Shown piece by piece: positions 12,035 through 35,013 of a stretch of DNA of 64,000 nt. The DNA is from Amoebophrya sp. A120 (lineage: Eukaryota > Protista > Dinoflagellata). Every line of letters starts with the position of its first letter. Positions within the stretch are counted from its first letter, which is position 1. Below the pieces are notes generated by a model. The model did no database searches, had not been told where the DNA came from, and saw nothing but the letters and a program-made list of their open reading frames with translations. Position numbers and translations under genes: made by a program. Where the stretch lies: the NCBI GenBank assembly GCA_905178155.1, contig CAJINV010000014.1:2203923-2267922 (forward strand). Reading direction: 5' to 3'.

Positions 12035-15000
12035 TCACATCAGCCAGCAAAATATGGGCGTAAGAAAAAAGAACCAAAAGTACCGTAATCGTTTCGCATG
12101 CCTTTCCACTTTTTTCTCCGCGTCCTCTTCGAGTCCCACCATCTCCGCGTGAAACACGCTGATTTCAGGCAACAACCCAAATCGCATCCCACTGCGCCAC
12201 TTCAGGACCGCTTTTTTCAGCATTCGCTTCGCCAACGGGACACGATTGTACGAAGAAGCCGGCCGATTGAAAAGCAGTTCTCCATGTAGTGCTTCCTGGT
12301 GGGGTCGTCCACTCCGCGTGTTCATCCGCGACCAGTTTTCTTGAAGGCTTTGCTTCTCCGAGCGACTGGGCCGCAGCAACGCGAGTTTTCCTGCTTCCGG
12401 AGGAGAGCTGCAGGCTAGCAACGGTGAGAACCCCCCTTCTGCGATCGAAGACGCAGCGGAGGAGGAGGAGGATAACATCAGCGGCGTCGAAACACCTCCC
12501 TGTTCGATGAACAGCATGTGCGCTAATTTCCAACTGAGGAATCCTTTTCTCAGCAAGACAAACAAACTCCGCATCCTCGCCACGTGGTTCAGCGTTTTCC
12601 ACCGGAGCAAGCTCGCAACCTTCTCCGTCCTCACCACCCACCGCCACGCGGACAGGGAAAGCGCCTCCACGCCGATGGTACCCCGCCTCCAGCGAAAGAA
12701 GGCCCTCCTTTGCTGGTCTTTGACGCGGTCGGTTTCGGTGAGGGGAGGGGACGACGGAAGGAAAGGGCGCGGGCCGAAAGTTTTGTTTCCTTTAGATGCT
12801 GGCTGTAGTTCATCTTCTTGCGAGGTGTTCTTACTTTTGGACGACTTCGACCTTCGACGCTGCTTTCGCTCGCCTGATGTTTTCCTTTTCTTCCTCCGTA
12901 TCTCGTCGATTTTCTTTTTCGCGGTTTTGGTGGTCTGAAAGGGATTGTACTGGGACAAGATGGTCTCTATTTTGACCGCATTGTCCTCACCGTCGTTGTA
13001 GTCTTGGGGATGAGCAGTGCCACTTTCGAGAAGACGCTCATCGGCTCGACCTGGCGCGGCGCTCGACTTACTCCCTGCTTCTTTGTGACCCACCAAGGGG
13101 GAGAACGCAAGGTCTTCATCAGACTCTGGTCCGCTGGGGATACAACTACTTGAGCCGTCCGAGTCGAATGAAGACGATGTCAATTGTGGGGACGAGGTGC
13201 GAGAGTTTTCGTCATTGTCGACTTCCGCTTTGGTAGTTTCGCCAATCTGGACAAGAACGACATTTCTTTCACTCGTGGTTTTTCTCCCCCTCCTCTCTAC
13301 AGCATTCTCCCTCAACCCCGTCACCGCCAACATTGCCAATTTCCGCACGCGGAACCCCCAGGCCAATTCCGTGTGCATCTTCTGCTTCAAAAGATTCAGC
13401 AGACAAGTCATCTTCTTCGCACTTTCCCGTTGCACCACTCTCCCCGATTTCCAGCTCTCCAAACCGTGTTTCCGGAAATGTCTGTTGACAAAACGGACGA
13501 CGGCAGTGCAAAAAGGTCGCCACTTCGCGCGATACTGCCTTCCGCTGGTTGCAATCGCGGCTTGTTCTTCGGCACGGTCGAGGTGGAGCAGCCAAGAACT
13601 GATTTTGGTCGAGGAGTCCAGCACCCCGAAAGCTGTTTGCAGTCCGAAAGCGGTGCTCGTCAAATCGTGGTCGCCGGCGGTCTTGAGCAGGGCGGTTTGC
13701 GCGTCTTCATGCTCGTAATGCGCCTCGTTTATCACTCTGTGGCTGTGCCGTTCGCTGGTGGCATCAAAAGGACGCAATGCGGTGCTTTCTGCAACATTTG
13801 TGTGTTCAAGATCGTCTACTTCGTTTTCATCCTCGCAGAGTTGCTCCTTTCGCGATACGTAAAACCGCCAGCGGTGGAGGATTCTCGGTGCGCGGTTCAA
13901 AAGGAAAAACCTGTTTGCAACTCGTGTGTACTTTCCAACCAAAGCACTGTCCTGCCACCAGTGGCTGTTGTTTTTCAGGTGTTCTTCAAATTTGGATGTA
14001 CGACGGTGGTCCGCTTTAGCGTTTTTCAGAATGTTGCTGCTCTTGGAAAGCCTATTCGCTACGCGTCCTGGAGGTGGGGGTGGTGTTGCGCTACAAGCGG
14101 TTCGGGTGAGAAAGTCCTCTCGATGATTTGGCATGCATTCGAACATGCTAGTACTCGCAGGCTCCGCGTAGAAGAGCTGCTGAGGCGGTTGGTGAACAAC
14201 CGGGTGTCGTGTTTCATCCGCACCTCCTTCTGCGGCGACGAAGTTCATCTGGGCGCGACCTCTTGTTGTATTTTTGCTCCTGAGAATGTCCGGTGTCGCA
14301 GACAAAGAGGAGGGGTTTGATGTCATGTTGCCGCTACTGATTCTGTCGCCAGCGTTCATCCTGCTGAATGGACCAACGTATGGAGAGTTATCATCTTGCT
14401 CCTGTCGTAGAAAGTGAAAATTCTCGTCGCCAGTTCTGTTCAAGAAATCGTTCACAACATCCAGGTCTTCCCTCTCCTTCGCCCGCAGCTGCAGCTTTGC
14501 CCGGGAAACTTGGAGGGAGGAAGTCCCGCCCACTGAAAAGGTAAGATTTCTCTCACTGGTAAGAGCTGAAGACGGTGTCATATTACTCGCTTCCGTTCTT
14601 TTACTCGGCGTCGATTCGACACTGGACAGCATTCCCTGCTTTGGCTGAGGACCGAGATAGAGTGGCTGCTGCTGTTCCTGTCGAGAGAATGTAGTTTGGC
14701 GTTGGTCTACTTGCTTGTTGTTTCGCGCATGTATTGCCAGCCTCTTCTGCCTGGTAACCGTCTGTCCATCTTTTGCGTAGAAGTTCCCCATCGAGCTACC
14801 TTCTGCAGGAGCTCCGGCAAAATTCATCCGTTCTGTACCTCCTTGCCGGTACTTGAGCAGTTCTTCCAGCACGGCAATAGCTTCAGGCTCAACATCTGTG
14901 ACAACGTCGTGATCAACAGCATCTTGTTTCGTAGTAGTTCCTTGATGATGGAGGTCATGCGGCAGGACCCGCTGATGATCTTCCTGGGTACGCTCATACG

Positions 15001-15691
15001 CGGTATACCCTCCACTTTTTGTAGGCTCCATGCGATAATGAAAACGTCGTCCAGCTGCAACATGTTGATGCCCAGCAAGCGCCAACTGTCCCTCGGTGCG
15101 CCGCGCGATCTTCCCCGCACTGCGCTTGGCGAAATACGCGGACTGTTGCGCAAGAGAGACATGCTGTTCGTGTGTTTGATCGACATCCTGATGATAATCC
15201 AGCTTGTTCCAGTCATGATCGTCCACCTCGTGATCCACTCGCTCTCCGTCCTCGTCACTGGCGTTGTCCGCGAGAAATTTCTGCAATTTGCTCGAAAAAT
15301 AACTGGTCCTGTATGCGCTCCTCGTGGGGTCGTTCAGCTCCCTCCGTTTCTGCAAGGAATGGTCGATGAGCAGGTCTTCTTCCCAGCACGTGGACAGCAG
15401 CTTGTCTCGGGAGTGCTTCAGCTGAAACGAAGGTCCGGCTCCTCTTGCTGCGAAAGTTGCACTAGATGGTGGAGTTGCGATTGCAGATAGCACAACCTGT
15501 TGCTGTTGGTCGTGATATTTTTCTCGCAAGAGGAGCGCCTCCTCGCGGGCGAATAGTTGACTATCAGTTCTTGCTTCACGACCTCCCCGACGCGGTTCTT
15601 GCGAGGTGGACGGAGCCAGACCATGCGCGATTTTTCCGGGTGGAAACTGCTCGGCCCCGGCTGCGGAGGAAGAGGAATAGGACGATCGCAT
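12035..15691 (-). CDS. Hypothetical 1218-aa protein; large transposon inserted 26 bp upstream of the ATG
   Basis: Long ORF with basic W-containing helical segments near the C-terminus; probable GT donor near 12083. Confidence 0.7.
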   Translation of the reverse strand: MRSSYSSSSAAGAEQFPPGKIAHGLAPSTSQEPRRGGREARTDSQLFAREEALLLREKYHDQQQQVVLSAIATPPSSATFAARGAGPSFQLKHSRDKLLSTCWEEDLLIDHSLQKRRELNDPTRSAYRTSYFSSKLQKFLADNASDEDGERVDHEVDDHDWNKLDYHQDVDQTHEQHVSLAQQSAYFAKRSAGKIARRTEGQLALAGHQHVAAGRRFHYRMEPTKSGGYTAYERTQEDHQRVLPHDLHHQGTTTKQDAVDHDVVTDVEPEAIAVLEELLKYRQGGTERMNFAGAPAEGSSMGNFYAKDGQTVTRQKRLAIHARNNKQVDQRQTTFSRQEQQQPLYLGPQPKQGMLSSVESTPSKRTEASNMTPSSALTSERNLTFSVGGTSSLQVSRAKLQLRAKEREDLDVVNDFLNRTGDENFHFLRQEQDDNSPYVGPFSRMNAGDRISSGNMTSNPSSLSATPDILRSKNTTRGRAQMNFVAAEGGADETRHPVVHQPPQQLFYAEPASTSMFECMPNHREDFLTRTACSATPPPPPGRVANRLSKSSNILKNAKADHRRTSKFEEHLKNNSHWWQDSALVGKYTRVANRFFLLNRAPRILHRWRFYVSRKEQLCEDENEVDDLEHTNVAESTALRPFDATSERHSHRVINEAHYEHEDAQTALLKTAGDHDLTSTAFGLQTAFGVLDSSTKISSWLLHLDRAEEQAAIATSGRQYRAKWRPFCTAVVRFVNRHFRKHGLESWKSGRVVQRESAKKMTCLLNLLKQKMHTELAWGFRVRKLAMLAVTGLRENAVERRGRKTTSERNVVLVQIGETTKAEVDNDENSRTSSPQLTSSSFDSDGSSSCIPSGPESDEDLAFSPLVGHKEAGSKSSAAPGRADERLLESGTAHPQDYNDGEDNAVKIETILSQYNPFQTTKTAKKKIDEIRRKKRKTSGERKQRRRSKSSKSKNTSQEDELQPASKGNKTFGPRPFLPSSPPLTETDRVKDQQRRAFFRWRRGTIGVEALSLSAWRWVVRTEKVASLLRWKTLNHVARMRSLFVLLRKGFLSWKLAHMLFIEQGGVSTPLMLSSSSSAASSIAEGGFSPLLACSSPPEAGKLALLRPSRSEKQSLQENWSRMNTRSGRPHQEALHGELLFNRPASSYNRVPLAKRMLKKAVLKWRSGMRFGLLPEISVFHAEMVGLEEDAEKKVERHAKRLRYFWFFFLTPIFCWLM

Positions 15692-15717
15692 GGTTGGTGA
15701 CAGAGGACTTTCAATGA

Positions 15718-15982
15718 TATCGAAGGAAAAAACTGTTTCACTGTGGCGATACTAAAAAATCACTGATTTTTTTTTGGTGTGAACTTGCAGAATTTTTTTA
15801 AAGTGAGTTTGCATGTTGCTCGTGAAGTGTCTATGTCGAAACTACATATGACGACTCTAGCTATCGGTTGCTTCAGCTATAGGTTAGTTAATCTAGTTAG
15901 GAAGGCAGAACGTAAGCTAATTAAGTGCTATCCGGAGCGTCGGCTGAGGTAAGGGTGCTAGGCCGCATTCTGGCCCCACCTC
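15718..15982 (+). repeat. Left terminal inverted repeat (~265 bp, imperfect)
   Basis: Blocks mirrored at the right end: first 29 bp, aaaaatcactgattttttttgg, ctagctatcggttgcttcag (15857-15876), ctagttaggaaggcagaacgtaa, ttctggccccacctc. Confidence 0.92.
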
Positions 15983-16649
15983 ACAACAAAAAAACTCAAA
16001 TTTTTGCTAAGTACCCCATCCAGGTTCGAAATACAAGGCTCATCCGGGAAGCTCTAGAAAATCTGGGTTGATCAGGCATGCCAGGGCCAAATCCAGCCTG
16101 CTGGGCGATCGGAGTGCTGTGATCGAGATCTGTCATGCAAATGGTGGCAATTGGCTCAGAATGTCCCGCTCATGTCAGTCAAAATATCGATCGAGAATGA
16201 AACAGGTCCAGACCGCGCATCACAAATCGCACCATCCCTCCGCATGATCGGAATCGTGATCCTCGAAGCTCCTGCGTGTGGATCATGTGCATCAGCAGCG
16301 CCGCAAAAATGAAAACAACAACAACTCCATCTTCATACGAGCCAGGGCTTCTATCATTTGCTTCGCGCAAGTGATCTCAACTACTTCTTCCGTGACCCCT
16401 GGACTCGGATACAACTACTTCTAGAACATCTTCTTCGCTAGACGCGCAGAAACCTCCTCCGTAGAGCCACTTGCTGCACCGACTTTCCGTCGGCAATCTT
16501 ATCCGAAAAACAACCACGCAGCCGAGGGATAATCGATAAGCGCATGAAAGTAGTGGTCTCGTTTGATTTGATATACGAGTATCCGGCGGCTGAGTGGTTG
16601 TTTTTCGCAAGGATATTTGCGTCTTCTGCTGGTCCCTCACTCAAGCAAG

Positions 16650-19079
16650 ATGTCGCGCGCCAACATCGTCCACAACGCCAAGATGACTGGAGATTATTCC
16701 AGTTTGAATGCCGGCGAGAAGCGGAAGGAGTCCTCGAGACTCTGGAAGGCAAAGAAGTCGCTGGGCCTGCAGTACGACACGCCGAAGGATCTCCGCGAGA
16801 TGATTGCCGACTGCCAGGAGGCGCTGGATGAGCTGGAAAAGCGGCCGGAGGAAAAATTGGGCGGGCAGATCTTCTCGGGCGAAAAATACAAGAAGTATAC
16901 TTATCTCCGTTGGTTTTTTTTAGTAACGTAGACCGTCGCTTCAGCATGACAAATTCGGTTTTTTTTGTTTTTCTTGATCTACTACATGATGCGAAGACGC
17001 ATGTTGGGGCGGTCGGTGCAGGTCATTTGTCTTTAGAAATAGCAACACAGACTCGCGTCGGTCCCTACTATCAGCGTTGCCGGCCCCCCTTACGAAATAG
17101 CATGAGAGATTTCGCAATCTTGTATCAGACAGCATCACAAATTTCCATTGTCCAACCCAAAATCCCTCAGTGGCTGGGATGACATCGAGCTGAACTTTCA
17201 CACGAAATGGGTGGCGCTTTTGTTTGGTGAAGACCAACAGAACGTCCAACGGGCCATCCGCCACCCGTCGCAGGCGGTGGGCTTGTACAGAACCATGGGA
17301 ATTACCGATACGCACGCATAAGCATCTATACCCGTCTTCATATTTGTGAGTTTGTCATGCACGAGAGTGGTTGAAGTTTCGGCTTTTTAGAATGCGCGAT
17401 GTGCTTTTGTTCAAATCTCCATGTTCCTGAGAGTTTAAATTTTCCCCGCAACAACTAAAACAGCCCCCCAAGGGGAACGAAAAGGCGCCGAATGAACGCA
17501 CGGCGGTGGCCGAATTGATGTGGTGGCGGGCGAATGCGAAGCGGAAGTTCAAAAAGGCGGTGGCCGAATTCAAGAAGATGATGAAGAACACGGGCAAAAC
17601 GTTGGACACTTCCACGTCCGAAGCCGACGACTCCGACAAGACCAACGACCAGACCACGGACGACGAGGAGGAGCGCACCTACAAGCGTGGTCGCGAGACA
17701 AAGCGCTCTCTGCCGATCAAGGACACCAAGCGGAGCAAGCGTTCGGTATAAATAAATCTGTTATGCGTATTTCTTCCCGGTGTTAGCACATAGATCGAAT
17801 CTGTCATGTGTATCGCGAATCGAATGACTCACAAGAGCCAATCTTTCCCCAGCCCGCATGAGAAGCTTCTCAATTTTCCAAATCGCACACACAGGTGTTG
17901 GCCATCAAGGACCGTGCCCGCCGCTCCCGCGCCGAGTCGAGCTCCGAGGACAAGAAGCGCCGCGCCCGTGGCAGCCGCCGTGACACCAAGCGCCAGAAGA
18001 AGACGGGCGTTCTCTCGGAGTCCGATTCTCCGCCCCCCCGCAAAAAGCGCTCCCACAGCAACCACCGCGTGCAGAAATCCACTTCCTCGGCTGCCCGTGC
18101 GGCGAAGCAGATCCTCGCGTTGCCGGACAAACGTCGCGATTCCAAGGAAGAGAAGCTGAACAAGGAGAAGTCCCGCGCTGCCAAGCAGCCGCTGGGCAAG
18201 GGGAAGGAGAAAAAGTCTTCGGATCTGCGCCTGGAAGCGTCCTCGGACTTCGAGGAGCAGGATGCGGACTCCTTGGACGCTTTCTTTCGTAGCGACGAGG
18301 AGGAGGAAAACGACTCCGATGAGAAGCCGTCGAAATCCGACGAGGAGTTTGTGGATGATGAAGAGGCTTATGGAAATGATGAGCAGTCCTCCAACATGCC
18401 CTTTTCGGCGTTGCACCGTCAGAACATGCGGAAGCTGGGCAACAAGACCACGGTGGCTGCGGGGAAAAAGGCGGGAAAGGGAAATGTTGGCGGCGGCAAG
18501 AAGGAAAAATTGTTGCCCTCGGATTCCGAAGACAAGCTGGTGCCGCCGCGCCTGCGGAACGTCGAGGCCCCGGGCACGGGTGATCGTCCGATGAAGGCGT
18601 CGCGCCTCCCGCACCGGAACGCTCTGGAATGTTTGAACTTTTTGGAAAACCGTCAGAAGATGTCCTCCCCGGGTGAGACGCAGAAGTCAACCGACTTCGA
18701 ATCTCAGCAGACGTCTTCTGGTGGCACCCCGCAGCGCGCGTCGAAAAAGGGCATCAGCTCTGCCGAGAAGAGCTACTCTACGCCCGAATCGATGAAAAAG
18801 AAACGGAAGTCCGCTGCTGCGGGCGCGGGCAGCGTCATGAAGAAGTTAAAAGCCACCCCGTCCCAGAAATCCCCCGCTGCGTCGCAGAAGGAGGAGGTGA
18901 AGAAGCCGGCTGGTACTCCGGGTGGTGGGTCGAAGAGTGGAAAGTCGAAATCCACTCCGAACTCCGACAAAAAAACCCCGACCACCCCGCAGTCGGCGAA
19001 GAAGGAAGCTGCGAAAGCGAAGACGCCGGGCCAGGAACCGAAATCCGCGATGAAGTCGGATGCCGGGTCGAAGAAGTAG
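16650..19079 (+). CDS. Transposon gene A: multi-exon protein with a Lys/Ser/Arg-rich basic C-terminal region, function unknown
   Basis: GC-rich exons at about 16650-16894, 17171-17273, 17464-17745 and 17895-19079, separated by short AT-richer segments ending in AG; TAG at 19077-19079. Confidence 0.7.
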
Positions 19080-20598
19080 TTGAAATTTTTGAGGAGTTGC
19101 TGCTGATCTCGAGCACTTCGAGACCAGCCCTCTGGCAATACAAATGACAACTTAGATAGAAAATCGAAACTGATGTTTTTTTTCTAGGTAGTCGCCTAGC
19201 AAGAAGCGTTGACTGATACATCCAAAAGCGAATGCGTCAACTTTTAGACTCCTAGAAGCCGAATACCCCTGCAGCCACGGTTTTTCGCTCGCTGTTTTTT
19301 AAAACGACCGATCTCAACGCCGTATCTGCAGCATGGGCTGGCCACCTATTGCTGTAGACACGACGCGGAGTAGGTTTCATGCGAGCTTTTTATAAATATA
19401 CAGCACGCGATAGTACTACAAATATATTTCTACCTCGATATAGATGCTTTTCCTCTGCTGACGAGCAGAGTGTTTTATCCTCCTACTGCGCGCCACAGAC
19501 CACGATGATTGATTTTTTTTGTGTCTCGACACCAACATGAACCCCGCTTGAAATAACGAACCTGTGCGGCAGCTGCTCGAAGCCTAGTAATTGGGCAGAC
19601 TTGGCGCGGTTGCTCTTACTTGTCCCCTTTTCTTCCAGATAAACCGTTCCGCGATGTCTGCAGCAGATAAATCGAAATCCCGGGTCTAAATAAGTAGTTC
19701 CTCTAGCTCTTGGCTCGAAGTAGTTCCGCACTGCAGTCGAAGTCTTACAATGGAAATCTTGGCCCGAATTAGATCCGCACTACAAATGACGAAACTTCAT
19801 AGAATCCGCATTACAGATTACAAGTGGTCCTCTGGTTCTCATGGTTCGAAAACCTTCGGCAAAATCCAAAAAGCACAACCATTGAGATGCATATCGCTAA
19901 GCCATGACATTTCCAGCGGATTAGAAATTGCGGACTATCTTAAGTCTTATCGCATTTTACAACTTTACTCACTTCTTCATCTTTCTGTTCTGTGGTAGAC
20001 CACTACTCAAATCATTTTTGCCGTCGCGTTCTACTTCTTGACCTCGCGCACGCCACTACGAAATCGAGATGGTCGAGAAATCGAAGAAACACGTGCAGAG
20101 CGGGGTGCTGTCCCTGGTCCGGATGATGCCGGAAAAACAGCGCTGCAACTGGTACCGGAAGAAGTGCAGCCGTATGAATTGGAAAAGTTGGAAGGGGTTC
20201 TATTTTTGAAGCGTTTTGCATGATTTACGCATGACAAATCGACCGCGCACTCCTGGGCTTCACAAATGGAACTACTTCCAGTCTTTCCAATTTCATACTT
20301 CTGCGTGCTGCTTGGGAGACTTGGCGTTATGATAAGGCCATGGAGCACCCCCTCCCGGCGGGCTTGGATATGGAAAAAGGGGAATGCGTCGGAAGTTTCG
20401 GGTCTGAGATGGTATAAGCATTTTGATAGTTGTTTGTGATGCGTATTCCGGTCGTTTTCGTAGTTTGTTATGCAAAAAGCAAACTTCGTAGTAGTCTATC
20501 TGTCCTCTTCCATTTCTGTTTTCTCCTTGTGTCTCATGCATGTGGCTCCCCGGGCTGGAACTTCCTCACTCAATTCCAACAAAAATAAAAAGGCTCTC

Positions 20599-23500
20599 AT
20601 GCTGGACTGGATGGCCACGCGCGGGTACGCTGATACCGTGAAGGAGTACATCCAATCGGTCCGGATGCAGGAGTCGTGCCTCACCGACGAGGACCAGCGG
20701 CTGCTCCTTGCTGCGGCGCTGGAGAAGCACTACTGCGACGACGAGGCGACGAAGCACCACCAGCTGGTAACTTTTCTTCTGTTTCTTCTCGACCTTCTTC
20801 TGCATCAAAAGCAAATCTGTCATGCAGTTCTCCACTAGTCGACAGCAAAAAGCCCTCCCATCATGATTGCCAGAGTCTGTCATGCAATTTTTCACAATTC
20901 CAAACCAGATGAACGTGTTGCGGTCGTGCATGGCGGGAATCATCTTCGTCTGGAACTGCCTCGGGGTTTGTGCGCTGGATTACCCGCCCGAGTTCCAGTA
21001 CCTGTCGGACTACACGTGGCAGCGTACTCTGTGTCTGGCCCAGGACACGTCGACCAAAGGGTTGGAGACAAAAAACGGAATTCAGGTATATGGAAATTTG
21101 TCATGCATTTTTCGCGCGATAGTCATTTGCTGGCGTTTTAGCAACTTGCCACTTTGTTTCTCACCGATCGCTTTCAATGCGTGTGTCAAACCTCAAACAG
21201 GTCTACATGCTGTTCGCCCACAAGACCGCCGCGTCGTACCTCACGCACATGTGGGCGATGCCGTTGCAGCGGCCCAGTGGGGCACTCGGGGGCGGAAAAA
21301 ACAGGCAGCGGGCGGCCGCGCAAGCAAAGGCGTCGGACACGTTTGGTGTGTTGCACTGGCTGGGTGGTGCAAAGCTGATCGAGAAGCTGAAGGGCCCCTT
21401 CAAGACGGGATGGCGCACCACCTGCGTCTTGTCGGGGGATCAAGAGGAGACGCAAGTCCGCTCTTCGTACGGTTTGGCGATGGTCTTAAACTGCATCCCA
21501 ACTTTGGGAGTTCATCATCGTATTTCGAACATTTGTAACAAGCTGTATCCGCAGCTGTCGAAAGTGAGGGAAGCCCTCAGAATCTTTCTGGGCGGCCAGT
21601 GGTCGAGGCAGTCGCTTCGGGGCGCTTTTGAAGACGCCCGGGTCCGCCTTTTGGACTCGGCAGAAAACGACGGCTGGTTCAGCCAGGCCATCGAGACTCA
21701 GACCGGGAAGTCGACCGCGGAAGCCCTACGCGAAAGTAAGACTTACACCCTTTTTCACGATCTACGTTCTTGATTTGTCATGCTGAAGCTGGGGGGGAGG
21801 GCACAGCGAGGAACTGGCCACAAAGTGGCAAAGCAAGACGGGAATACTCTGCAAATCCCCCTCTGGGGGTGGTCGGGACAGGCAGCGCCAGGCCTGCGCT
21901 TCATTTTTCTCGCGCCACGGCTACGAGAACTACTCGCCCAGCAATTCTCTGTTTTCTTACCTCGCCCTGGCCAAACACCTTCAGCTGTAGGACTGAAGGT
22001 GTAAGAGCCACGCGCCACTTTCGGAGGGGTCAGAACTACCTCCGAAAAGTAATGACACAGTAGACAATTTCTGCCCCACACTAACTGCGTGAAACAGCTT
22101 CCGCGATTTGCAGTTAGGTGGGGATTAGAAACACGAGCATTACTGTTTCACCCTCGAGATGTAACGCGCCCGAACCCCTCAGCGAAGAGCATCACTCTAG
22201 TGAGATTCTTTGTTTCTCATCTGTTACACATGTGACGCCACACTTGCAATTTTCGATGATGAACATGCAGCAGTCTTGTTTTCGCAAATGATTATCTCGT
22301 ATCCGAAAAATGCATTACAGACGCATCATTGCTGTCGATGGTCGAAACTCGGTGGTTCGCGGAGATCAAAATTTGCTTGCTCCTGTTGGAAAATTCCGAA
22401 GTCATCCTGGCCATCCTGCGTGAGATGCTTACCAACAGCAGCCGCGTCCGGCTGTCGGTTGGGCCGGGCGAGGATCCGGGGGATGGCACGGCGGAGGACG
22501 GTACGTTGATCGATTTTTGGGATTTGGCGCCGCGTCCGCTCGTATCCACCGCGAAAACATCCAGCTGTAAATCTGTAATATGTCAGTCCTGCATGACAAA
22601 CTCACCACCTATGCCACTTTCCGCATTACAGATTTACTTCCTGGACCGTTTTCCGTTTCATAGTCTGAAATCACTCCGGACGGCGTCGTGCTCGGATTTG
22701 ATACGGATGTCAACGGGAACAGCTATGACGCGATCACCAACGCGGTTCTGGCGGACGATATGCGCCACATCATGCCCGGAGTGTTCGAGAGGCCGGAGGA
22801 ACTGGAGCCGGGCCGGGCACCGCCAGTCCTCGCCCCGATTATGGAGAACCGCCTCCTGCCGATGGACAACGTCGAGGTGGAAGCTTTCAATGCTCGCAAC
22901 CCGCCGGCTGATGGTGAAGCAGAACTGCTGTTCGGGAATTTGTCGCCCATCGCTGCCGATAAGGGGAAAGCCGATGACGAAGACCCCGAGTTATGAAAAT
23001 GCAAAAACTCATCTTCGCCGCAGGTGCTGATGGCGTGACGTGTCGCAGTTTGTCATGCGGAAATAGAGATAGATCACGCAGCATGGGCTATGAGGGTGAG
23101 TTTTTTTTGCGGTTGCATAGTCTCCGGCTCCTGCTGCCCCGCGCGCAGATCCCGGTGGGCAGCTGACGGACAGAAACAAGGTCGTGCAGCTGTACAACGC
23201 GATCAAGTACTGCGACATGGACCGGCTCAACCACTACAAGAACATGAGCGACCGTCTTTACAAGTACCACCTCTGCCACTTGGAGGTGACCGGCGGGGCG
23301 CTTCTGGACGACGAGAAGCGTCTGGAACTGATCAACAAGTATCAGGACCTGTCTCCGGGCCTGATGTTCGAGGCCGGGCACCACGAGTTCCTGCAGAGCG
23401 CGGAGAAGTGTTTTCCGGACATTCTGCTCCGGGCGATCACCGACTGCACGCGCCAAATCCACAACTCTGCCGAAATGCAGTCGGTGTTCATCTTCTTGAT

Positions 23501-25641
23501 CTTCGCCTTCAGATTTTGGCTGTGCACCGTCTTCGATCCGGCCTACAACTTGTGGCACACGCTGGGCCACCGCATCGGCGAAGCGAGCAGCTGGATCACC
23601 AACAGAGTGATCCGGTTCGACATTCTGGACGCCGAAAACTCCGAGGGGTTGTTTCTTCGCCCGAAAACTGTTTTTGCGGAGTGGATCCAGCGGCTTTTCA
23701 TCCACGACGAGGAGCTTGCGCGGGATGTGTTGGATAATATCCCGATAGCTGGGTCCACGTCGGACTTTGAACAGGAGAACCACTGGCGGTTCGTCACGAC
23801 CGCACAACGTATATTCAGGAAGTTGGCGGGTCGCTTCTCGTTGTCGGCCGCCCGCGTCCGCTGGGCGGGGAAGTTTCGGCTTTACAAGGCCTTTCCGAGC
23901 CTTTGGGGAAACTCGGCCCGACAATCGCCGGTTGCGATTTCGCAGCTGAAGCCGCACCTTCTGGATCCGGCCAATCCGCCCACGACCGCCAGTGTCAAAA
24001 ACCGCGTGATCGAGCTTGCGCGCGAGAACGTGTTCTCGCCGCTGAACATTTTCCGCAGTGTGGAAGATCTTCGCAGCTCGCACCAGCTCCCGTTCGACAT
24101 GAAGAAGATCCTCGACTCGGTGAGGCAGTGGTGCTTGTCGGACAAGATCGCGGCTCACAGCTCCAACTATTTTCTCCCCGGCCTGGAGATCGCGGCGTTT
24201 CTGGAAGCCAGCAAGACGGATGACCTCCGCATTATTCCGATCTTGCGGGAGCTCGGGGAGCGGATCGACAACTTCTTCAGGTTCCGGCACTGGGCTGCGA
24301 GCAAAAAACCGCTGGTGGCGATCAACGAGGAGAGTCACGCGTTTCAGGTGGTGCTGATTCTGCAGGTCATCTTATCAGCTGGGGAAAACGGCCAAGCTTG
24401 TTGAATTTGTCATGCAAAGCAGCATGTTGGGGTGGTCGGGACAGCTCCATTTGCAGCTCCGTTTTTGCATGATAAACCCGAGGAGCGCAAGTTTGTCATG
24501 CGGGAGCATGATCAGAATGTCATGCATTTTTAGAATCTTTGGCGAATTATGCATGACAAGTTCATCAAGCTTGGCGCATTTTCATCCGGATATCGCCGCG
24601 GGCTGTACTACGGGGTGACTTTGGAGAAGAAGGAGCTCGGGGTCTACATGCTGAACCCGGCCAGTTTTCTCCCTGTGTTCGGCCTGACCGCCAACCTCGC
24701 CGTTCTGGTGCTATGCACTCAAAAACTGTCCTGTCCCGACCACCCCAGCATGCGGAGAGTGAAAGAGTATCCCTCCCTATGTGGCTCGTGCAAACAAGCA
24801 GCATGCTGGGGTGGTTGGGGCAGGAAAGTTTTTCAGTGCATAGCGCCACTACCACATCTCGTTCGACAACGGGCGCTTCTTGGTGAATTTCCTGAACTCG
24901 GATTACGTTCTTTTTCGCGACGCTGTGCTGCAGGGCCTGGACCACATTCCGAGCCGCATGTTGAAGGATGTGGTGAACATCTATTCCGGGGTGAACATCA
25001 TTTCGGATCCGCCGGCCTCCGAATTGCGGAAAGTACTGCGGGTCATGGCGGGCGACGCGGTTCCGATCGAACAAGCGAAGGAGACGATGCAGCATTTGAT
25101 CCGCTCCGAGATCATCGATCTTGGGGCCATCGATGATGCCCCGAATGCCCGGCGCCGCCGCGGAAACGACGGGAACGCTGCCGGCCGCCCCGAAGGAGCT
25201 GGTGGTGGCGAGGGGGAGGCTGACGGTCCGCGCGGCCGGCAGGAATTGGGGCGCGTGATGAACAAGACCCAGTGGGCCTTGGTGTGCTCGCACTGCAACA
25301 CCGACGTGGTGAATGTCCGCCGCTCCATCAAGCGGACGGGCGGCGGGGGTGCCATGCTCCGCGCTGTGTGGCCCGCCGGCACCTCCTGGGAGGGCGAGCG
25401 GAAGCCGCAAATGAGCACCTTCATCGGGGCCCGGAACGACGAGCAGGAAATTGTGGAGAAGGTTTTCAAGGGTCCGGCGACCGAAAAGCACAAGCAGATG
25501 TGCCCGGAATGCGACGAGTTGCTCCTGATGCAGCGGGACATGCGCTGCAAGGCCGCGGAGGTGCTGGAGATGAATGAAGAAATTTCGATTCCGGGTGGCG
25601 GCAATCTCCTCGATAATCAAAATGATGATATGGTGTTGTAG
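20599..25641 (+). CDS. Divergent hAT-like DDE transposase (~1200 aa or more) with a C-terminal CxxC...CxxC extension
   Basis: Exons at about 20599-20766, 20909-21085, 21201-21735, [21736-22320 unresolved], 22321-22541, 22664-22990, 23121-24347, 24534-24707 and 24844-25641. Motifs in hAT order: LCLAQDTSTKG (D1), VLSGDQ (D2), VHHRISNI (CxxH-like), VETRWFAEIKICLLLLE (TRW), ARENVFS (ERxFS-like). C-terminal CSHC...CPEC. True start may be further upstream. Confidence 0.72.
22543..22662. mobile_element. Introner inside the transposase gene
   Basis: Left end tatccaccgcgaaaacatccag..gtaaatctgtaat, right end reverse complement tatgaaacggaaaacggtccag..gtaaatctgtaat. Removal joins LAPRP(L) to SEITPDG and avoids an in-frame TAG; readable as GT-AG. 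Confidence 0.8.
22992..23119. mobile_element. Introner inside the transposase gene
   Basis: Left end tatgaaaatgcaaaaactcatc, right end reverse complement tatgcaaccgcaaaaaaaaactcacc. Removal joins DDEDP(E) to SPAPAAPRAD in frame with ORF 23184. Direct repeat degenerate. Confidence 0.78.
24712..24842. mobile_element. Introner inside the transposase gene
   Basis: ~40-bp IR: tatgcactcaaaaactgtcctgtcccgaccaccccagcatgc / gcatgctggggtggttggggcaggaaagtttttcagtgcata. GT-AG intron 24708-24843 joins NLAVL to RHYHISFDNGRF in frame. Confidence 0.85.
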
Positions 25642-26420
25642 ATAAGACGTGTCCGTTTAGAAGTTCGCGCAGGAGCTTAGGAAAATTCGCACACCAAAAC
25701 ACGCACCGCTCCTTCTGCAATTTTAGAAATACAAGTTAGCACAGCCGCAAGCAACAGATATTCTTTTTGTTCGTTTGGAAATAGCAATTTGCAATGCCAA
25801 ATGTAGTCCTTTTATCCTTGAGCTCGAGTCGTCAGCAGTAGATTTTATCAGATTCCGACCTGTTTTTGCACAGTTTTAGCGCGCAAATTTACAACCTAGA
25901 CATCTCCGCTGTGCCATCGTTTTGTCTTTTATTCCGGAGCTCGGTCTCATACTAATTACATTCTCGGAAGCTTTTTCTTCTGCCTAGGCTCTACCACGCT
26001 ACTATGAAAGGGACACAAAAGTACAGGGATATAAATAAAGGCTTTCAAATACAAAAGGAATAAAGTGCTGCGCTGAACTACCTGAAGATGAGAATTGGAA
26101 GACTAGAGCCTCCTGCTGCGCGCCCCTAGTCCTTGAAGCTTGCGCCATTTTCACTGGCAGCTGGCAGGGGTGGCAGCGGGACCAGCGCACTACTGTCCAA
26201 ACAGCAGCACACGCCCCGGAATCTTTACAATCGAAAGCAGAAAGAGCATATCCAAAAAGATCACAACGTAAGGAAATCGCACACAGTAAAATCAAAAAAC
26301 TCCGCTCCTCCACCGAGATAGTTCATAAAAGTCCTCTGGTTCACGCTTGAAATCTTCGCATCAGCCAAATTTGCAATGCTGCTCGCACTGATCAGGAGGC
26401 TCCTCACCAATCAACTAACC

Positions 26421-27861
26421 CTACGGCGCCGCCGCTCCGAGGCTGTTTGTCTGTTGGACATTCAGAAGCATGTTGCGTAGCGAGGCCGGGTCCGCGATCT
26501 CCTCCGCAGTCAAATAAAAATCATCCGTCCAGTCCCAACCTCCGCTCTGTTTTACATAGTCCAGCTGGGACGGATACAGTGTGATCGTTCGAGTCCATGG
26601 CATCCTGCAGTTTTTGAAGTCTTATCCTTGCGTCAGATGTTTTGGTTTCTTTCGCCTTCGAATCTGTCATGCGCAAAAACAACTTATCACAGGCCAAGAA
26701 TCGAGAGAGAGGTAGACTAGAATCTCGACGTAGCTCGTAGTGCTTGCTGCTGTGCGTAGTTCGTATCGCTTGCACCGTGCTAGTGCCTGTGCTGAGATTA
26801 AGTACTCCTATCGAAACAATGGCCATATTACCCCGGCGCCTCCGGGTCTGGCGCATATCCGTTGGCCGCCAGGCCCTGGATCGGCAAGAAGTACGTGCCC
26901 GCAAGGGTTCTTTCGGGGCCCGTTTCTTCGCGGCAGTGCAGGAGGAGAACTTCGAGGTCTTGCAGGAGAAACCCGTCGCCGTTTTTGCTGGTATAAAATC
27001 TTGATTTGTGTTGCTTGAGAGAGAGATAAGAGCGTAAGGATAGGGATTTTCTCACTCTTTCCGTCATATGCTATACAAGTTTGCCTCCTCCTTGCACATA
27101 GTGTTGAAAACAGGGCCGCACTATTTGCCCCTACTAGGCGAGAAAAAGTGCCGGGTGGTGCTTGCCCGAACTCCTTGCACGTCCCCCATCGTGCTTCGCT
27201 TGAGCTTGAGAGTCCGCTCCTGGCAGCGGAGCACGAACTCCTGGTGCCTCAAGGTGCCATCGACCACAGAGAGCCCGCGCCTGCTAAGCGAATACGCGCC
27301 CCCTGCGGTGCTCACGCAGTCTGTAAGCTGCTGCCGCATCCGCTGTTCAACAGCCTGGTTGCGTGAGGACGCGTTTCGGTGCCCCATCGCGCCGCGTTTT
27401 TCAATGGCGAAATCGCCCCAGTACTGCTCGAGGCGCGGCCGAATGGCATCCCGGCTGCGCCACCACCTGTCGTGGCGCAGGTCAATTGCGGCCCAATCGT
27501 AGTACCGGTACACCGGTACTACGAGCAGCATGTCCTCCACTTCGGAGCTAATGCCCACGACGATGCTGCCGCCATAGGCTTCTCGCTTCTTTTTGATTTG
27601 GCACTTCAGATTTCTACACCACTGGTCCCAGTTACTCCAGGACCCCTTGGCCTGAATGAGCATGACGGTCGCGGACTGGTTTCCGCCCGCTGCCGCCGGC
27701 CCGCCGACGGCAGCCTCATTGTTGGCCGGGGGTTGGGGCGTCCTGGCGATAGTCAGATCAGCCAAATACTCCGGCGTTTCCACGATGTCGAAGAGGGGGC
27801 TGAGGATCTCGTAGATCTGCGCCACGGACCACTCTTCCACGTCCCGCGGCTGTGTCCCCAT
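26421..27861 (-). CDS. Transposon gene C: unknown protein, probably multi-exon, convergent with the transposase
   Basis: GC-rich ORF 27121-27861 plus probable downstream exons at ~26830-26990 and 26421-26610; splice junctions not resolved. Confidence 0.55.
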
Positions 27862-28243
27862 GGCTGCGGAGGCAAATAGCAGGGCCCGAAGGGGCTGCCG
27901 CCGGCAGCAGGCTCGTTACAGGCAGGGCCCAGGCAGCTGGCTGGGCGATAATAGGTGGGCTGGAGCAGCTGCTTTGAGGCTGCTCTGGCCCTGTAGCTAG
28001 GGGGGCTAATTCTCAAGGGGGATTTGCGGGCTCGGGGGACCTGTTTTTGGCCTATTTGCAGGGCTTTTGCCTATATATCCTCTATTTTCATGCGTGATTG
28101 ACGGCATAGTGCTCTATTATGGCTCAATTTGCCTATCCTCCACCACAGATACGTCGATACTGGCCCAGCTTGGCGACCGACCAGCTCCTCCACGACTCCA
28201 ACCGACTTGATCCTCATCTCTTAACAGATTCCGCCCGTGTTAC

Positions 28244-28508
28244 GAGGTGGGGCCAGAAGCGCGGTAAGCGAAGATGCAACACGTGGAACGCTGCTGCCGC
28301 CACTTTAGCTTTACGTTCTGCCTTCCTAACTAGTTAATGTAACTGAAGCAACCGATAGCTAGTTTCATATCTAACAATTTGCAATGCAAAGAAAAAGGTC
28401 CACCAGATGCAGCGGCTCCGGGCAAGTCGAAAAATATTCAACTTTAACCCAAAAAAAAATCAGTGATTTTTCGAGATGACCACAGTGAAACAGTTTTTTC
28501 CTTCGATA
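28244..28508 (-). repeat. Right terminal inverted repeat (~265 bp, imperfect)
   Basis: Reverse complement of the blocks in 15718-15982; the innermost block sits the same distance from the end on both sides. Confidence 0.92.
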
Positions 28509-31500
28509 AATGATGCCATTCGATTATTACCTCCTCTTGGCGACATCAGTTTTTGGTTTTGAATCAAAGAAATGCACGCAAAAATATTTCTGTGTGAGTT
28601 TTGAAATGCTGCTGACGTCGGCCACATATTGCAACGCAGTGCTCATTTTTGCACTAAAACTACACACACTCACCCTCATAAAGTACACGCCCTCGTCGAC
28701 GCACCACTGAGTTTATCTTGCTCCCTCCACTGACAGCGTCCTCAACCACGTACCTACTTCTAGTATTTCTTTAATCGGACATAGGTACGTCTATTCTCAA
28801 GTAAGTACCAACATGTTTGCAAGTTGAGTCTTCCTCTCTGGAACTACCGCTAGCGCGGCCACACCAAGGACGAGGACCATATCAAAACATCACGATGGTC
28901 ATCTAGACCACCTCCAGAGTGAAAAGTTATAATCGGCGCACAAACAAAGCAGGACCTGCACCACCAGCATAAGCCGCTCATTGCTTTTATTTTCCTCTCT
29001 GCGCTGGTGTTCTTCGCAGCGTCTGCTCCCGAGAAGCGAATGAGAAAGTGAAGAAGACGGGGCTGCTGGCATGATGTGCAGCAGCATGCACCTGCTTCTT
29101 GACGCGTTTGTCATGACTTTCTCTCGAAGAGATTGAGATTTTTAGTTCTTGCCAAGCTTCTTCAGGCTGGCGAGTCTAGTTACAGACCACAACCTACCTC
29201 CCGGAAATAACGCACAGCGGAAGAAGCAGAGGCATAAAATTCAGTTTGCTGATGTAGCACATCTATCATGACGATGGTCATGTAGTATCGCCGTCCCATT
29301 TGTTGCGGTCGGGGTCGCGTTCTCGTACCACATGCACATGATCTAAAAGAAAAACTTCAACAACTCGGTAGAGCATACAACGATCGGCGTCGAAGGTGGG
29401 TAGCAAAGTAGCCCTCACTTTCACAACAACTTCTACATGAAGACTAGGAAGACGCATCATATATTTTATTTTTCAAACGTTTTCACAAGCGCTGGAATAC
29501 GCACGGCACCCCAGACTCGTCTAGCGTTCTTTTGTTTAATATCTGAAAAAAGTCAGGAGAATCAGTAGAATAGATGCTATCACACACAGTCTGACATTGA
29601 CAACGCCCCCTTGTGCCCGTCTTTGTCGCCCAGAAAATTGATTAATGGATTTTTGCGCAAATCCAAGTCATTGTACCACGTCAAAGTAGTAAAAACAAAA
29701 ACTGCTGCTCCTGCGTGTGCGCGACTTGCATCGCTATTGGTGTAACTACACGAAGCAGAATAGGAAGACAAAACAAGATGGACGATGCATCTTCAACTTG
29801 TAAAACCCGTTTTGTAGAAGGTAGTCGCGCCATCGCTTGCCCAAAAGAAGCTGCTCTAGGGTGAAACTCAAGCCCAGGATGTCCTTGCCTTTTCTGTTGT
29901 CCGAGTGTTCAACCTATACGGCCAAATGAGAATTCGATTTGACATGAACACAAAACTACTACAAAAACAAATACTGTTTGTGTAATTTTTTGAAATTTCA
30001 GAAATGTCGTTGTTTCGTCGCTTACGTTTCCTTGCATGATGAAGCAGCGAGGTGGGCCACAAGTACAACAAGCAGCAGCTGCGAGTTGGAGTTGCTCAAG
30101 TTCAACGTTGCCCCTGATGGTGTTGCGGTTTGTTACTCCTGATCTTTAGGTGGAAAATGGTCAGCACAGCCGCAAGAAGGGATTTTTATTCTCCAAACCG
30201 CGGGTAAGTACGTATGATCAAACGAAACTGTGCCTGCCTCTGTACGAGCAAGAGCTTCTTTCTTTTCTCGATTCGGGCGGCTGTAATTTTATTTGTGTGT
30301 GTGTGTGTGTGTGTGTGGAAAATTGATGCTCTACTACACAGCTGCGCTACATTAACCGAAAAGACGCTTTCTAAAAGAAGCAGCCACTGCTATGTTGACT
30401 ACGAGGTCTTTGTGGTCGTGCAGCTTCTTTTTCACAATTGCAGCTCAAGAAGAATGCAGATCCGATATACGGATGCTGGTGTTGGAAGTAGTCAAATCAT
30501 TTGTGGTCGTGGTGCCGTGCGGCTCATCAATTATTTCGCGACTTCTAGGAGCATGCCGCTCAGTAGTGCAGTTCATCCCCGACCCCGTGGCATGCACACA
30601 GGTTGGCTCCCTCCAACCTCGTGGCAAACCGCCCATCATGTATTTTAAAAATACATGATGGACTGCATGAGCTTTGATGTTTCTATTAAAGATACGGAAA
30701 ATTAGAAACTTGCTCTTGTTGCCGCGCTGTCACGTCTAGATAAGTATCGAGAGAAACTGCTTGCGTGCCCGTACTTATTGTCATTTTCTTGATTAATGGT
30801 CTTCCAAAAAAAAGGAACGACGGTCTCCTTACAGATACAGTCCATCGGTTCTTTTTCTGATTTTGTTACTTAATCATAATCACCCCGGCAGCTGCGTGAG
30901 CCTGGTTCTGTCGTTTCGTTGGCCGACGAGTTCTGGCGCCTTCAAATATGAGGCAGAAGGGTAATAAACTAAAGCAAATGTGGAAAAGGAAAACGTAAAA
31001 TATCACAATGACAACTTTGATGAGATATTCGATCGATCACGATCGTCTCGCTATTTTACAAGAAAGAGGTACAACATAAACATGATGTGTCGTGAAGATG
31101 AGATGGATGAAGCAGTAAATAGCTTTTTTATGTCCCCTCGTCACTACGCTTCGATATTCATTTTAAACGAAGTTCTTGGTCACCCCATAGAAATATTAAG
31201 TGGTATCATCTATCATTCATCGTCGTATGAAACAAGAGTCAGTTGGTTCGGCGCCGGCACAGCAAGTTGTTCGAGTTGAGCTCCAGCGGAGTAATTTGAT
31301 GCTGTTGTTGGCGTGTTCCTCAGCGCGTCGACTGCAGGAAGAGGAAACATCGAACAAGAAGTATGCTACGACTGATAGTTCCCGGCTTGCGCTGGTGTGA
31401 TCCCGATGATCTTGGAGGTGGTGGTTGCGCCCGGAACTCGGTACGTCTGGTGGTGTTGTATTTTTCATATGAGTTGCAATTTGAATTTCTTCTTTTTTGC

Positions 31501-32074: not shown

Positions 32075-32273
32075 ATCTTCGGGATCGTAAGTCGCCGAGC
32101 TCGTGCCGCTCGTCGGACTTTTGATTGACTGCTTGTTCCTCTTGTTAGACGTGCTTTGTTGCTGTTATGCACCAGTACAAAATTTTTACAGTACACACAC
32201 AAAAACAAGCATCACAAATTTTCGCATATGGCGCCTTTTTAACGAAACATGGGAATTGAAGATGATATCGCTG

Positions 32274-34090
32274 TCATGTTCTTAAACTACAGCTACGCGG
32301 TCGACCGCGTAATTGATCTTGGCGGGGTAACGAAATGGTCGAAGCGGAAATAGCCGAACCCAAGCCGACATTTGAGATGTCCAAAAGATGAAGAACATTT
32401 GATTGTGTGCGTGCGAAAAATTTTTTAGCAATGGATAGCTGTCCTGTTGATGTCGGCGAGCTGCCTCCGGTACCGACGTTCGCGAAGTTGTTGCTGTTGC
32501 TCAAATTGCTGAGGACCTCGGAGGAAGAGGATTGCAACGGCAGCAGATTCTCCTCGCCAGAGACCACCGCGTTGGTTGGGGAGGGTCGCTGATGTATTGT
32601 TCTGCCGTCGTGCTGGTGCAGCTCTACCTTCGCACGACCACGTCCTTCGTCAACAGTGTCGTCTTCTGTTATCTCCATGCTGTTGCTATCTGCGAGCTCT
32701 ACTTGCTCTTGACCTGCTCTACTCTGTCCTGCTCCTGGCGATCTCTCTATTACTTCACCAGCTCGCCCGCCGTCTAGATTCCCGAACCCGTCCGGGCTGT
32801 TGGCGGGGTAGTTTCCGTTTTCGTCGACATTTTCGGGGTAGTAGGCGTCCAGGTTCGGAAAGTACTGGAAGAGAAAGTTAAACGAACTGTTCCGCGTATA
32901 CTCCTTCCCCCAGATCAGCCCGCTGCTGTAGGTCCGCAAAATCCGGTCCCCCGCCGGGTTTTCCTTCACGACGGGGATGAGCTTGTCCAGGATTTTCTGC
33001 CCCAGTTTCGCGACGAGACGGAAGGGAAGCTTCGTCGTGGTGTTGTTGCTGTCGTCCTCCGTGGTGTGGTGGCTGCTGTCGTGGGTGTCCGACCGGTCGC
33101 CGATACTGGATTCGGACCGAACACTGCTCATCGGCACGTGCTCCGTCTCCTTGGTCTGGGAGGGGGTTTGTTTTCGTAGTCTTTGCGTCACAACATCCGC
33201 TACGCACTCGTACTACACTGCGTTGTACGCGAAAATGACTTCTAAAAGCACGACCTGCATAAATATCGATGAGAAAACTGAAACTACACTAACACTATAC
33301 CTGCATCAGCCTGAGTTGGTGCCCCACGAGGTTTATCCTGTGCAAAAGTATCGTACTCGACTCGTATAATTGCAATCATGCAAAAATTCTTTTTTTTTAG
33401 GTAAATCCGCATTACAAATTTTATCTCTCATGCTGAGGAAATTTGTCATGCATTCATACGAGTACGATACTTGTGCAGTTCATAAGGTTCGTGTAGTGTG
33501 GACTGATCCCCTTCTTCCGGCATACCGTGCTGCAATAGGAACTGTCGTTGCGCTATGGAAGCCTCAGGTTTGAAGTCGACAAATAAGTTGAAAATGAAAT
33601 AATTTGTCATGCATAAAATGCAAGGCATGAAGTGCCTGTCTTGCCGGGATGGCAAGTGAGGTCGATTGTGAGCCTGTTTAGGGTTTGAAGTAGAGCTGCT
33701 AAAGCAGCATGACAAAAGCAGTCTTCTGTGCCTAAACAGCATGACAAACTGGATTCCGGTGCTCGGAAGATTTGTCATGCGCCACTTGATAAGTGGGCTT
33801 CCGACTGGCATGGGCAAGGGCATCCATTTCATGCATGGCAAACTATTTCAACTTTGACGATTTCGATCCTGACACATCCATATGCGCATGTAGATGGCGG
33901 CGGCTTCCGGGATCAGTTTCACGCAGTGGTTACACCGGAACAAGAAATCTACTTGCTGGTGTGGTCCTCCGGCGTTATTGGCATTCGTCGCGCCCAGACC
34001 CGTAGTAGCACCGGTGTCCGTCGCCGTGGTCGACGTCATCGTGGCTGTGGTCATGTTGCTGGCGGGGGCAACAGAGAAGTTGTGCAGCAT
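32274..34090 (-). CDS. FCS-like zinc finger (FLZ/DUF581) domain protein
   Basis: Removing two introners gives FLFRCNHCVKLIPEAAAIYMRNDSSYCSTVCRKKGISPHYTNLVGHQLRLMQ (CX2CX17-YCSX2C). A GT-AG intron starting at 33300 then leads in phase into YECVADVVTQRLRK (ORF 32274-33191). Confidence 0.8.
33334..33484 (+). mobile_element. Introner family 1 (151 bp), antisense to host gene relative to sister copies
   Basis: tatcctgtgcaaaagtatcgtactcg ... cgagtacgatacttgtgcagttcata; perfect DR AGGTT; homologous to 40118-40254 and 47847-47999. Confidence 0.92.
33554..33882 (+). mobile_element. Introner family 2 (329 bp)
   Basis: tatggaagcctcag ... ctgacacatccata; perfect DR TGCGC; splits the FLZ finger; homologous in inverted orientation to 39738-40044. 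Confidence 0.92.
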
Positions 34091-34789
34091 CAAGATCTTG
34101 GTACTAAATGTTGAGCCCTCGTGGTGGACCACGTGCACGTTACTTAAGCAGTTGAAAATGAAGATGCTCTTCACAGCCGCGTGCCTCCGAGTTCGCTTCT
34201 ATTGATTTTTTTTCTCCTGCTCCCCGAGAATGATCCCCAAGAAGCGCTGCAGCAGATGCAAGAAGCTCAGCTTGTGGAAAAAAAGGCTGCTGGAGATGAA
34301 TGGACTCTACTGAAGACCGGTGGTGCAGCGTGTATTTCTTTTCAGCCAAGAACCACTGCTGACGATGAAGCCGTCGTGCTGTCGAGGAAAACGCAGAAGA
34401 AGAACAGCAGGGGACGGCGGAGGTATAACGTGTTGAGTAGATTGAGCGTCTGCAGCAACTGTGCTGAGGATGTCAATGGCTCCTGCTGTACTCAAAAAAA
34501 GTACATAGTTGTTCACACACACACTCCTGCTCCTCTCCGATTTACAACTTTGAAAACACCTAAAGTTGAATTGGAGAGTGAAATATAAATACTTCACAAG
34601 AGGAATAATCCTCGTCAAAGTTGTTCGACTTCGAAGAGGCACATAGGAAGGTCTTGGGCATGGGCGTTTCCACGCAGTACAAATAAACAAGGTAATACTA
34701 ATAATTGAGGAACTTCTTGTGTTCCATATAAATCTCTACCATGACTAGATATAAGTCAGAAAACCCATTATTTAATAGTATCCCGCAAT

Positions 34790-34981: not shown

Positions 34982-35013
34982 ACATGCAGACAAAGTGCCC
35001 AAGCTTCTAAGCG

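Follow-up and report, generated by a model that had tools for sequence, protein, structure and literature searches.

The window analysed here, a stretch of 64,000 nt from Amoebophrya sp. A120 (contig CAJINV010000014.1) in whose positions all coordinates are given, contains a 12.8-kb element with terminal inverted repeats (TIRs), and this element carries a gene of 10 exons that likely encodes a hAT-like DDE transposase. The gene holds five TAT...ATA inserts, named E0, E1, E2, E4 and E3 in 5' to 3' order along it. They are regarded as introners, and the short inverted-repeat inserts of the window start with TAT, as Farhat et al. describe for A120 in the available part of their report (PMC7789003). 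The whole reading, that of an element with its gene and five old introners which are spliced out passively, is reasonably probable, and the element is a candidate autonomous partner of the A120-type TAT...ATA introners. The coordinates of the features are shown in Table 1.

The element and its putative transposase gene

The element shows inverted repeats of about 203 bp at 71%, whose outermost 29 bases are identical, and a target-site duplication that the sequence-only reading had called perfect. It is so: the bases at 15713-15717 are those at 28509-28513. The duplication is perfect at 5 bp, and only 3 of 8 bases match if it is scored at 8 bp. The marks of an autonomous TIR transposon (TIRs, a target duplication and an unbroken frame) are all found, and we infer the label of transposase for the frame. 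Removal of the five inserts and of four predicted GT-AG introns leaves 1,266 codons without interruption. The exons are matched in order, from 20087 to 25623, by tblastn of seven homologous proteins, and the gene model shows 27% identity to one of these, P0001, over 1,234 aligned columns.

Run X1 was taken as DNA because introns and spacers are covered at flat depth. In this run the element interior lies on two contigs at depths of 41.7 and 43.6, compared with 44 for the flanks, and one full-length copy is seen; no second full copy appears among the DNA-contig joints inspected, beyond which 53 further joints lie. End pieces of the element, of 239 and 264 bp, show X1 depths of 65.6 and 79.1, and the bins over the element tips reach 228-562, against 44 in X1 DNA contigs. 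A joint from 15977 to 28245, at depth 50 in X1, corresponds to an internal-deletion derivative of the element, and a 203-nt contig of X8 bears both tips. This contig, together with the DNA joints and depths, indicates that short elements with the ends of the 12.8-kb element exist elsewhere. Another joint, from 28500 to 15718 with 13 letters between, apparently represents two tip-sharing short elements placed back to back. The contigs of run X3 cover flank pieces and both tips and hardly the interior (15950-28250), which is no proof of its absence.

It is unlikely that the element is a last, silenced full copy, intact but untranscribed, whose introns go unused and which no longer moves the short introners. 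Only one full copy is seen, and a search of 1.84 billion representatives yielded no protein close to that of the gene (29-30% at best), which would follow if RNA-guided annotation had missed the gene. Against this, no stop or frameshift is found in the 1,266 codons, and GC content at third codon positions is 0.72-0.88 in frame across the nine exon stretches tested; the perfect duplication, the 29 identical terminal bases and the near-identical end pieces elsewhere point to recent activity.

The homologues were found by phmmer with the largest exon: seven proteins (E 2e-35 to 1e-11, 21-30% identity), four from Amoebophrya A25 and three from AT5.2, all of them unnamed. Among the rows that cover each position, D175, D268, E270, H293 and H294 are invariant in 4 of 4, W378 in 5 of 5, W692, D762, E766 and W769 in 8 of 8, and a C-terminal set formed by C1149, C1152, H1217 and C1221 in 7 of 7. 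The order and spacing of D, D, HH, W and E are as in hAT/MULE enzymes: the histidines lie 25-26 residues past D268, preceded by a glycine in all four rows (GxHH), and W378 is the conserved tryptophan upstream of the glutamate that is used as a hAT criterion. A first aspartate in a motif further upstream was dropped, as the homologues place it at D175. An AlphaFold model of P0001 built from 11 rows has a mean predicted local distance difference test (pLDDT) value of 50, and a fold of one exon by itself, with a pLDDT of 39, was set aside. In a wide fold search over 48,161 chains, Hermes takes the first rank (Z 7.6, rmsd 7.7, 185 aligned), residues 295-669 of the P0001 model lying on its residues 248-460, and unrelated helical bundles reach Z 6.9; Hermes residue 248 we take to be its second catalytic aspartate. 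In the Atlas, nine of the ten best family-bearing matches share one family or clan, and those listed are mostly of hAT type (0.76-0.84), which serves as a lead only.

Other searches were negative within their scope. No transposase Pfam family was found in 13 stretches of the window or in the seven homologues, word-indexed protein searches returned 0, 0 and the query alone, PDB sequence searches yielded no hit with E below 0.06, Foldseek gave no match at E<=0.001, and metagenome and viral contigs gave no related loci. The sequence-only reading had taken the gene for a transposase, and this is likely on the conserved D175, D268, H293-H294, W378 and E766, on the first rank of Hermes and on the place of the gene within a TIR element with its duplication. 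That the protein is instead a domesticated or captured cargo gene, the element having been moved by another enzyme, is quite unlikely. The empty Pfam, PDB-sequence and Foldseek searches would suit such a gene, as would the two other unexplained frames of the element; the invariant D, D, HH, W and E in hAT/MULE order and spacing, Hermes at the head of the fold search and the divergent paralogues in each genome (four clusters in A25 and three in AT5.2), as in a transposon family, argue against it.

Table 1. Features of the element, of its putative transposase gene and of the host control, in positions of the window
Feature	Position	Strand	Remarks
TIR element with TAT...ATA ends, 12,791 bp	15718..28508		from ends and depth
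Target-site duplication, left copy, 5 bp	15713..15717		identical to 28509-28513
Target-site duplication, right copy, 5 bp	28509..28513		identical to 15713-15717
Left terminal inverted repeat	15718..15920	+	first 29 bases identical to right end
Right terminal inverted repeat	28305..28508	-	pairs with left end
Likely hAT-like DDE transposase gene, 10 exons	20069..25641	+	predicted 1,266 aa, no internal stop
Insert E0, TAT...ATA, 125 nt	20173..20297	+	upstream of the span of the sequence-only reading; if retained, stop at codon 47
Predicted GT-AG intron, 181 nt	20412..20592	+	gene model
Predicted GT-AG intron, 142 nt	20767..20908	+	gene model
Predicted GT-AG intron, 115 nt	21086..21200	+	gene model and homologue tblastn
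Predicted GT-AG intron, 585 nt	21736..22320	+	17-nt motif in common with E3 and E4
Insert E1, TAT...ATA, 120 nt	22543..22662	+	codon 439, between W378 and E766
Insert E2, TAT...ATA, 128 nt	22992..23119	+	codon 547
Insert E4, TAT...ATA, 220 nt	24373..24592	+	codon 963; within the span of the sequence-only reading
Insert E3, TAT...ATA, 131 nt	24712..24842	+	codon 1001; 48-nt arms, 90% complementary
Second gene of the element, probably spliced	16650..19079	+	Lys/Ser-rich C-terminus; no Pfam family
Third open frame of the element, 264 aa stop to stop	27121..27915	-	no Pfam family
Host TAT...ATA introner, control	32166..32437	-	perfect 5-bp duplication; an RNA-type contig skips 32161-32437

The inserts of the gene and their removal

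Three TAT...ATA inserts had been described in the gene by the sequence-only reading. All three are real and each shows TIRs, but the gene contains five, E0 and E4 having been overlooked. The eroded direct repeats attributed to them were not recovered: the 5-bp flanks match at 6 of 25 bases overall, which is the chance level (P=0.62), with one matching base of five at E0, two at E1, none at E2, one at E4 and two at E3. The best single case is E3, with 3 of 4 bases; a 4-bp duplication was rejected there because the insert plus four bases does not reach the coding frame. No direct repeats are visible at the five inserts, and that they are eroded is what we infer from the host introners.

The inserts stand out by other properties. 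In a blind scan, TAT..ATA pairs of the window were scored by their TIRs, direct repeats being ignored, and the expectation was taken from 8 resampled windows: a score of at least 10 is shown by 17 pairs, against 0.75 expected, and a score of at least 9 by 23, against 1.6. E0 and E4 are among the 17, together with E1 (score 10) and E3 (score 22), and E2 is just below the cut (score 9). Each of the five folds as a hairpin (z -3.3 to -10.1, from 60 mononucleotide shuffles per insert), and a pattern of TAT, loose bases and AAA fits 10 of their 10 ends, compared with 15% of background TAT sites. At E3 the inverted repeat extends 6 bases into the flanks (24706-24848, 5 of 6 complementary), unlike that of the other inserts, and this extension may make for a longer RNA stem. 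The six occurrences of a G-rich motif in the window, at 17006, 18988, 21866, 24429, 24746 and 24808, all lie within the element; this distribution hints at local hopping or at a common origin of the introns of the element. E3, E4 and one GT-AG intron have a motif in common that is confined, in the window, to the element.

The claim that each insert must be removed to keep the frame holds for all five: retention of any single one truncates the protein, the first stop lying, in gene order, at codons 47, 604, 550, 975 and 1144. Two of the named inserts had also been read as in-frame GT-AG introns. Such readings exist for E1 (22542-22663) and E3 (24708-24843), but the one at E1, of 122 nt, makes the protein longer there, by one residue, than 5 of the 6 homologues covering this site, and its removal as CT-AG, over 125 nt, agrees with the homologue spacing. 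The reading at E3 is the insert plus five bases and agrees with 7 of 7 homologues. E2 has no in-frame GT-AG, and a GA-AG cut of 133 nt fits it, while E4 has no canonical splice register. At all five inserts the frame requires the length of the insert plus five bases, modulo 3, for which the probability is (1/3)^5=0.004 if that class is fixed in advance. The register was chosen by counting residues between conserved anchors, as junction scores from hidden Markov models did not discriminate (they gave the insert plus five bases at E1, plus two at E3, plus eleven narrowly over plus five at E4 and a longer cut at E2). The insert plus five bases reproduces the anchor spacing of the homologues at E3 (7/7), E4 (6/7) and E1 (5/6), which favours this cut, predicted on the model of a host introner, at three of the inserts of the gene.

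The host introner in question is the control of Table 1. It is removed as the insert plus five bases, that is, with one copy of its duplication, and has no GT-AG register. The control for splicing is one RNA-type contig (contig 20 of X7) from one study, in which 92 unlisted letters correspond to 28+64; judging from positions, the units at 33334 and 33554 would also be removed with five bases. Other RNA material says little about the transposase gene. The raw RNA runs X4, X5 and X6 contain 1, 0 and 2 reads on 14000-30000, of which the element received none and the host flanks hardly any. The RNA-type contigs of X7 and X9 lie over the host gene (29.2-34.3 kb), and in the transposase gene their depth is 0 in nearly all bins, with X7 depths of 0.49 and 0.38 in two of them; such contigs show presence, not absence. 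The contigs of X8 include one 151-nt piece, 23126-23276, which bridges no junction of the gene, and no read or contig was seen to span the junctions of the five inserts.

From the need for splicing, the sequence-only reading had gone on to propose that expression of the transposase depends on it and that this might be a feedback control. The first part stands insofar as a full-length protein would need all the inserts removed, but a dependence of this kind is common to many host genes; the second is unsupported. At A120 rates, the expectation for a coding length of 3.8 kb is 2.4 introners, and the gene has 5 (P=0.098); for all introns it is 5.4, and the gene has 9 (P=0.097), so the five are within expectation and the gene is not clearly enriched in introners. 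This need is not peculiar to the transposase gene, and it is therefore a constraint and not a control circuit. In a feedback by splicing, retention of introners would limit the transposase, so that a rising load or a change of life stage would throttle transposition; proteins made with E1 or E2 retained would lack E766, and those made with E4 or E3 retained would lack the C-terminal zinc module, such products perhaps acting as repressors. Such control is very unlikely. It would agree with the truncation caused by any retention, with the position of E1 and E2 ahead of the third predicted catalytic residue and with the precedent of the P element, in which, according to the portion of PMC7776569 consulted, retention of IVS3 yields a repressor. 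The number of introners is nevertheless not above the genome-wide rate, many host genes share the dependence on non-canonical splicing, the region of the second gene of the element has a TAT...ATA unit too, and no sign of regulated retention is found in the data seen.

Age of the inserts, link to the introners and neighbouring features

Both ends of the element consist of TAT, six bases and an A-run. The pattern TAT-N4-10-AAA fits 23 of 28 ends (those of the element, of six units inside it and of seven host units), compared with 154 of 1,002 background TAT sites; the five ends that do not fit are all from the host, and four of them come from two elements whose ends are of a different type. Among the seven host inserts first chosen by eye, the 5-bp duplication is perfect in six. 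In the blind scan, 11 pairs outside the element reduce to 8 loci, after three nested pairs were merged and pair 40133 was scored at 40118-40254 (score 9). A duplication matching at 4 or more of 5 bases is shown by 6 of these 8 loci and by none of the 6 within the element (P=0.009); if the substitution at 40118-40254 is not made and the nested pair is taken at its own ends, 5 of 8 outside loci show it (P=0.028). The DNA bins over the inserts have depths of 41.7-55, against 44 for single-copy sequence, and those over host introners reach 29,862-93,144 (relatives at 80% or more). The sequence-only reading had placed the inserts before the present insertion, and this is likely from the missing duplications and the few relatives at 80% or more. 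Both properties fit inserts that are older than the insertion, or that were imported with the element from another lineage, with the caveat that the host unit at 32166 also has few relatives and yet a perfect duplication. The host introners at 33334-33484, 40118-40254 and 47847-47999 are related and each contain a further TAT...ATA pair, set some 15 bases in from the outer ends, and the relatives of the first of them sum to a depth of 93,144 in its bin.

The course of events that we propose is the following. The transposase would be a divergent hAT-like cut-and-paste enzyme. It would bind TAT...ATA ends and insert them at a stagger of 5 bp, and in this way mobilise its own element as well as deletion derivatives and some, at least, of the short introners. 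Short elements would once have inserted into the transposase gene, as into any other, and these insertions would have been tolerated because non-canonical splicing of the host takes the insert with one duplication copy and restores the length of the protein. The two copies of each duplication would then have drifted apart, the hairpins being kept, probably because splicing needs them. Later the whole element would have jumped to its present site with the introns aboard, and, as with the introners of host genes, splicing would remove the five passively.

Several observations weigh against this reading. As to the enzyme, the C/DxxH motif reads GxHH and the duplication has 5 bp and not 8, and by those criteria the protein is therefore not a member of hAT; the Z of the Hermes match is within 1 of that of unrelated helical bundles and below the level at which the tool is telling; pLDDT is under 50 over residues 16-308, where the first two aspartates lie, so that the identity of the protein is given by motifs plus a weak fold match. 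As to the link with the introners, homologues occur in A25, where introner ends start with TTA, and in AT5, where 99.98% of introns are canonical, and the family is therefore not tied to TAT introners; past TAT and the A-run, the ends of the short introners, of which the protein is a putative mover, differ from those of the element. As to removal and age, the spacing at E0 is 3 residues wider than in three homologues, E2 lies in an unalignable stretch, and the host splice control comes from a single contig; E3, with its highly complementary arms and no duplication, fits an old insert only if the hairpin is under selection. A far-reaching version, in which the element is the master of some 30,000 TAT...ATA introners, founds a Syndiniales-specific 5-bp hAT-like lineage and limits itself through truncated repressors made by retention, is highly improbable.

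The element contains other features. A TAT...ATA unit without duplication, 16500-16615, lies just upstream of the second gene, whose region (16500-19079) shows several probable introns and a long Lys/Ser-rich C-terminus, and an inverted-repeat TAT...ATA pair of 323 nt (19347-19669, score 12), also without duplication, lies between the first two genes. The third frame, 27121-27915, is GC-rich and faces the transposase gene. Next to the element is a host frame on the minus strand, 12035-15751, which encodes 1,218 aa with no Pfam family. The element lies about 20 bases upstream of its first ATG (15691) and may separate this frame from its promoter. The element was also considered as a giant intron of this frame, and this found no support: a stop lies two codons upstream of the empty site and the first ATG is at 15691. 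Further along the window, 34780-36800 is a GC-rich block of tandem repeats, nested and built first of short units and then of ones of about 46 bases, in which both strands have long open frames, and 54728-59032, on the minus strand, contains a frame of 1,434 aa with DEAD-box and helicase C domains.

Comparison with known systems

The available text of Farhat et al. (2021, PMC7789003) reports for A120 that more than 60% of introns are non-canonical, that there are 1.42 introns per kb, that 29,850 of 66,565 introns are repeated and that the introner motif consists of inverted repeats with TAT, about seven loose bases and an A-run. Of putative transposases it lists two for A25. For A120 there are none, and from this absence the authors argued against a general transposase-mediated movement; what does move Amoebophrya introners they could not say. 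The introners described in that text resemble the inserts of this window in their TAT and A-run ends, short direct repeats (given as 5 bp in the Fig. S19 legend), hairpins and non-canonical splice ends. Two differences are found: the 12.8-kb element, whose end pattern and duplication length are those of the introners, has an unbroken transposase-like gene, and the five inserts of this gene have no direct repeats.

The TIR introners of A120 treated by Gozashti et al. (2025, PMC12130899) are also short TIR elements that create introns with mixed splice ends. In supplementary file 8 of that work most of the A120 TIR families in the rows covered are of superfamily 'Unknown', no Amoebophrya row among places 1-60 of 63 is finally classed as hAT, and the text examined contains no autonomous partner of the kind of this element. 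The search for mobilisers by Gozashti et al. in 2022 had a reach of 10 kb, and Amoebophrya is found in its main text only in the reference list. An element like this one may have been missed in A120 because its gene has nine predicted introns and no profile match and because its 12.8 kb exceed that reach. No description of such an Amoebophrya element was found in the open literature, subscription papers and repeat databases (Repbase) lying outside the search. The element thus offers a concrete enzyme and substrate with which the movement of Amoebophrya introners can be tested.

The P element is alike in that the full-length transposase needs the removal of introns and is truncated if one is retained. 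Retention of its third intron, IVS3, is regulated, tissue-specific and tested, as set out in the consulted portion of PMC7776569, whereas the introns of the A120 gene derive from likely passengers of the element and no regulation is seen. A transposase gene that tolerates its likely passengers as introns indicates that removal of the insert with its duplication makes insertions nearly harmless even to a transposon.

In hAT/MULE enzymes, according to the part of PMC5499845 that was available, a (C/D)xxH motif follows the second aspartate by 15-45 residues and a tryptophan lies upstream of the glutamate. The protein of this element is alike in its two aspartates, the histidine 25-26 residues after the second, the tryptophan, the long helical insertion and the glutamate, and Hermes (PDB 8edg) is its best fold match, over residues 248-460. 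It differs from hAT in the 5-bp duplication and GxHH, where hAT has an 8-bp duplication and C/DxxH, in having no Pfam hAT match, in its 1,266 aa with a C-terminal zinc-binding set and in the two extra frames of the element. With its seven unnamed homologues in two other strains, the family would extend hAT-like enzymes to 5-bp duplications, and in its 12.8 kb and imperfect TIRs of about 200 bp the element is more MULE-like than hAT-like.

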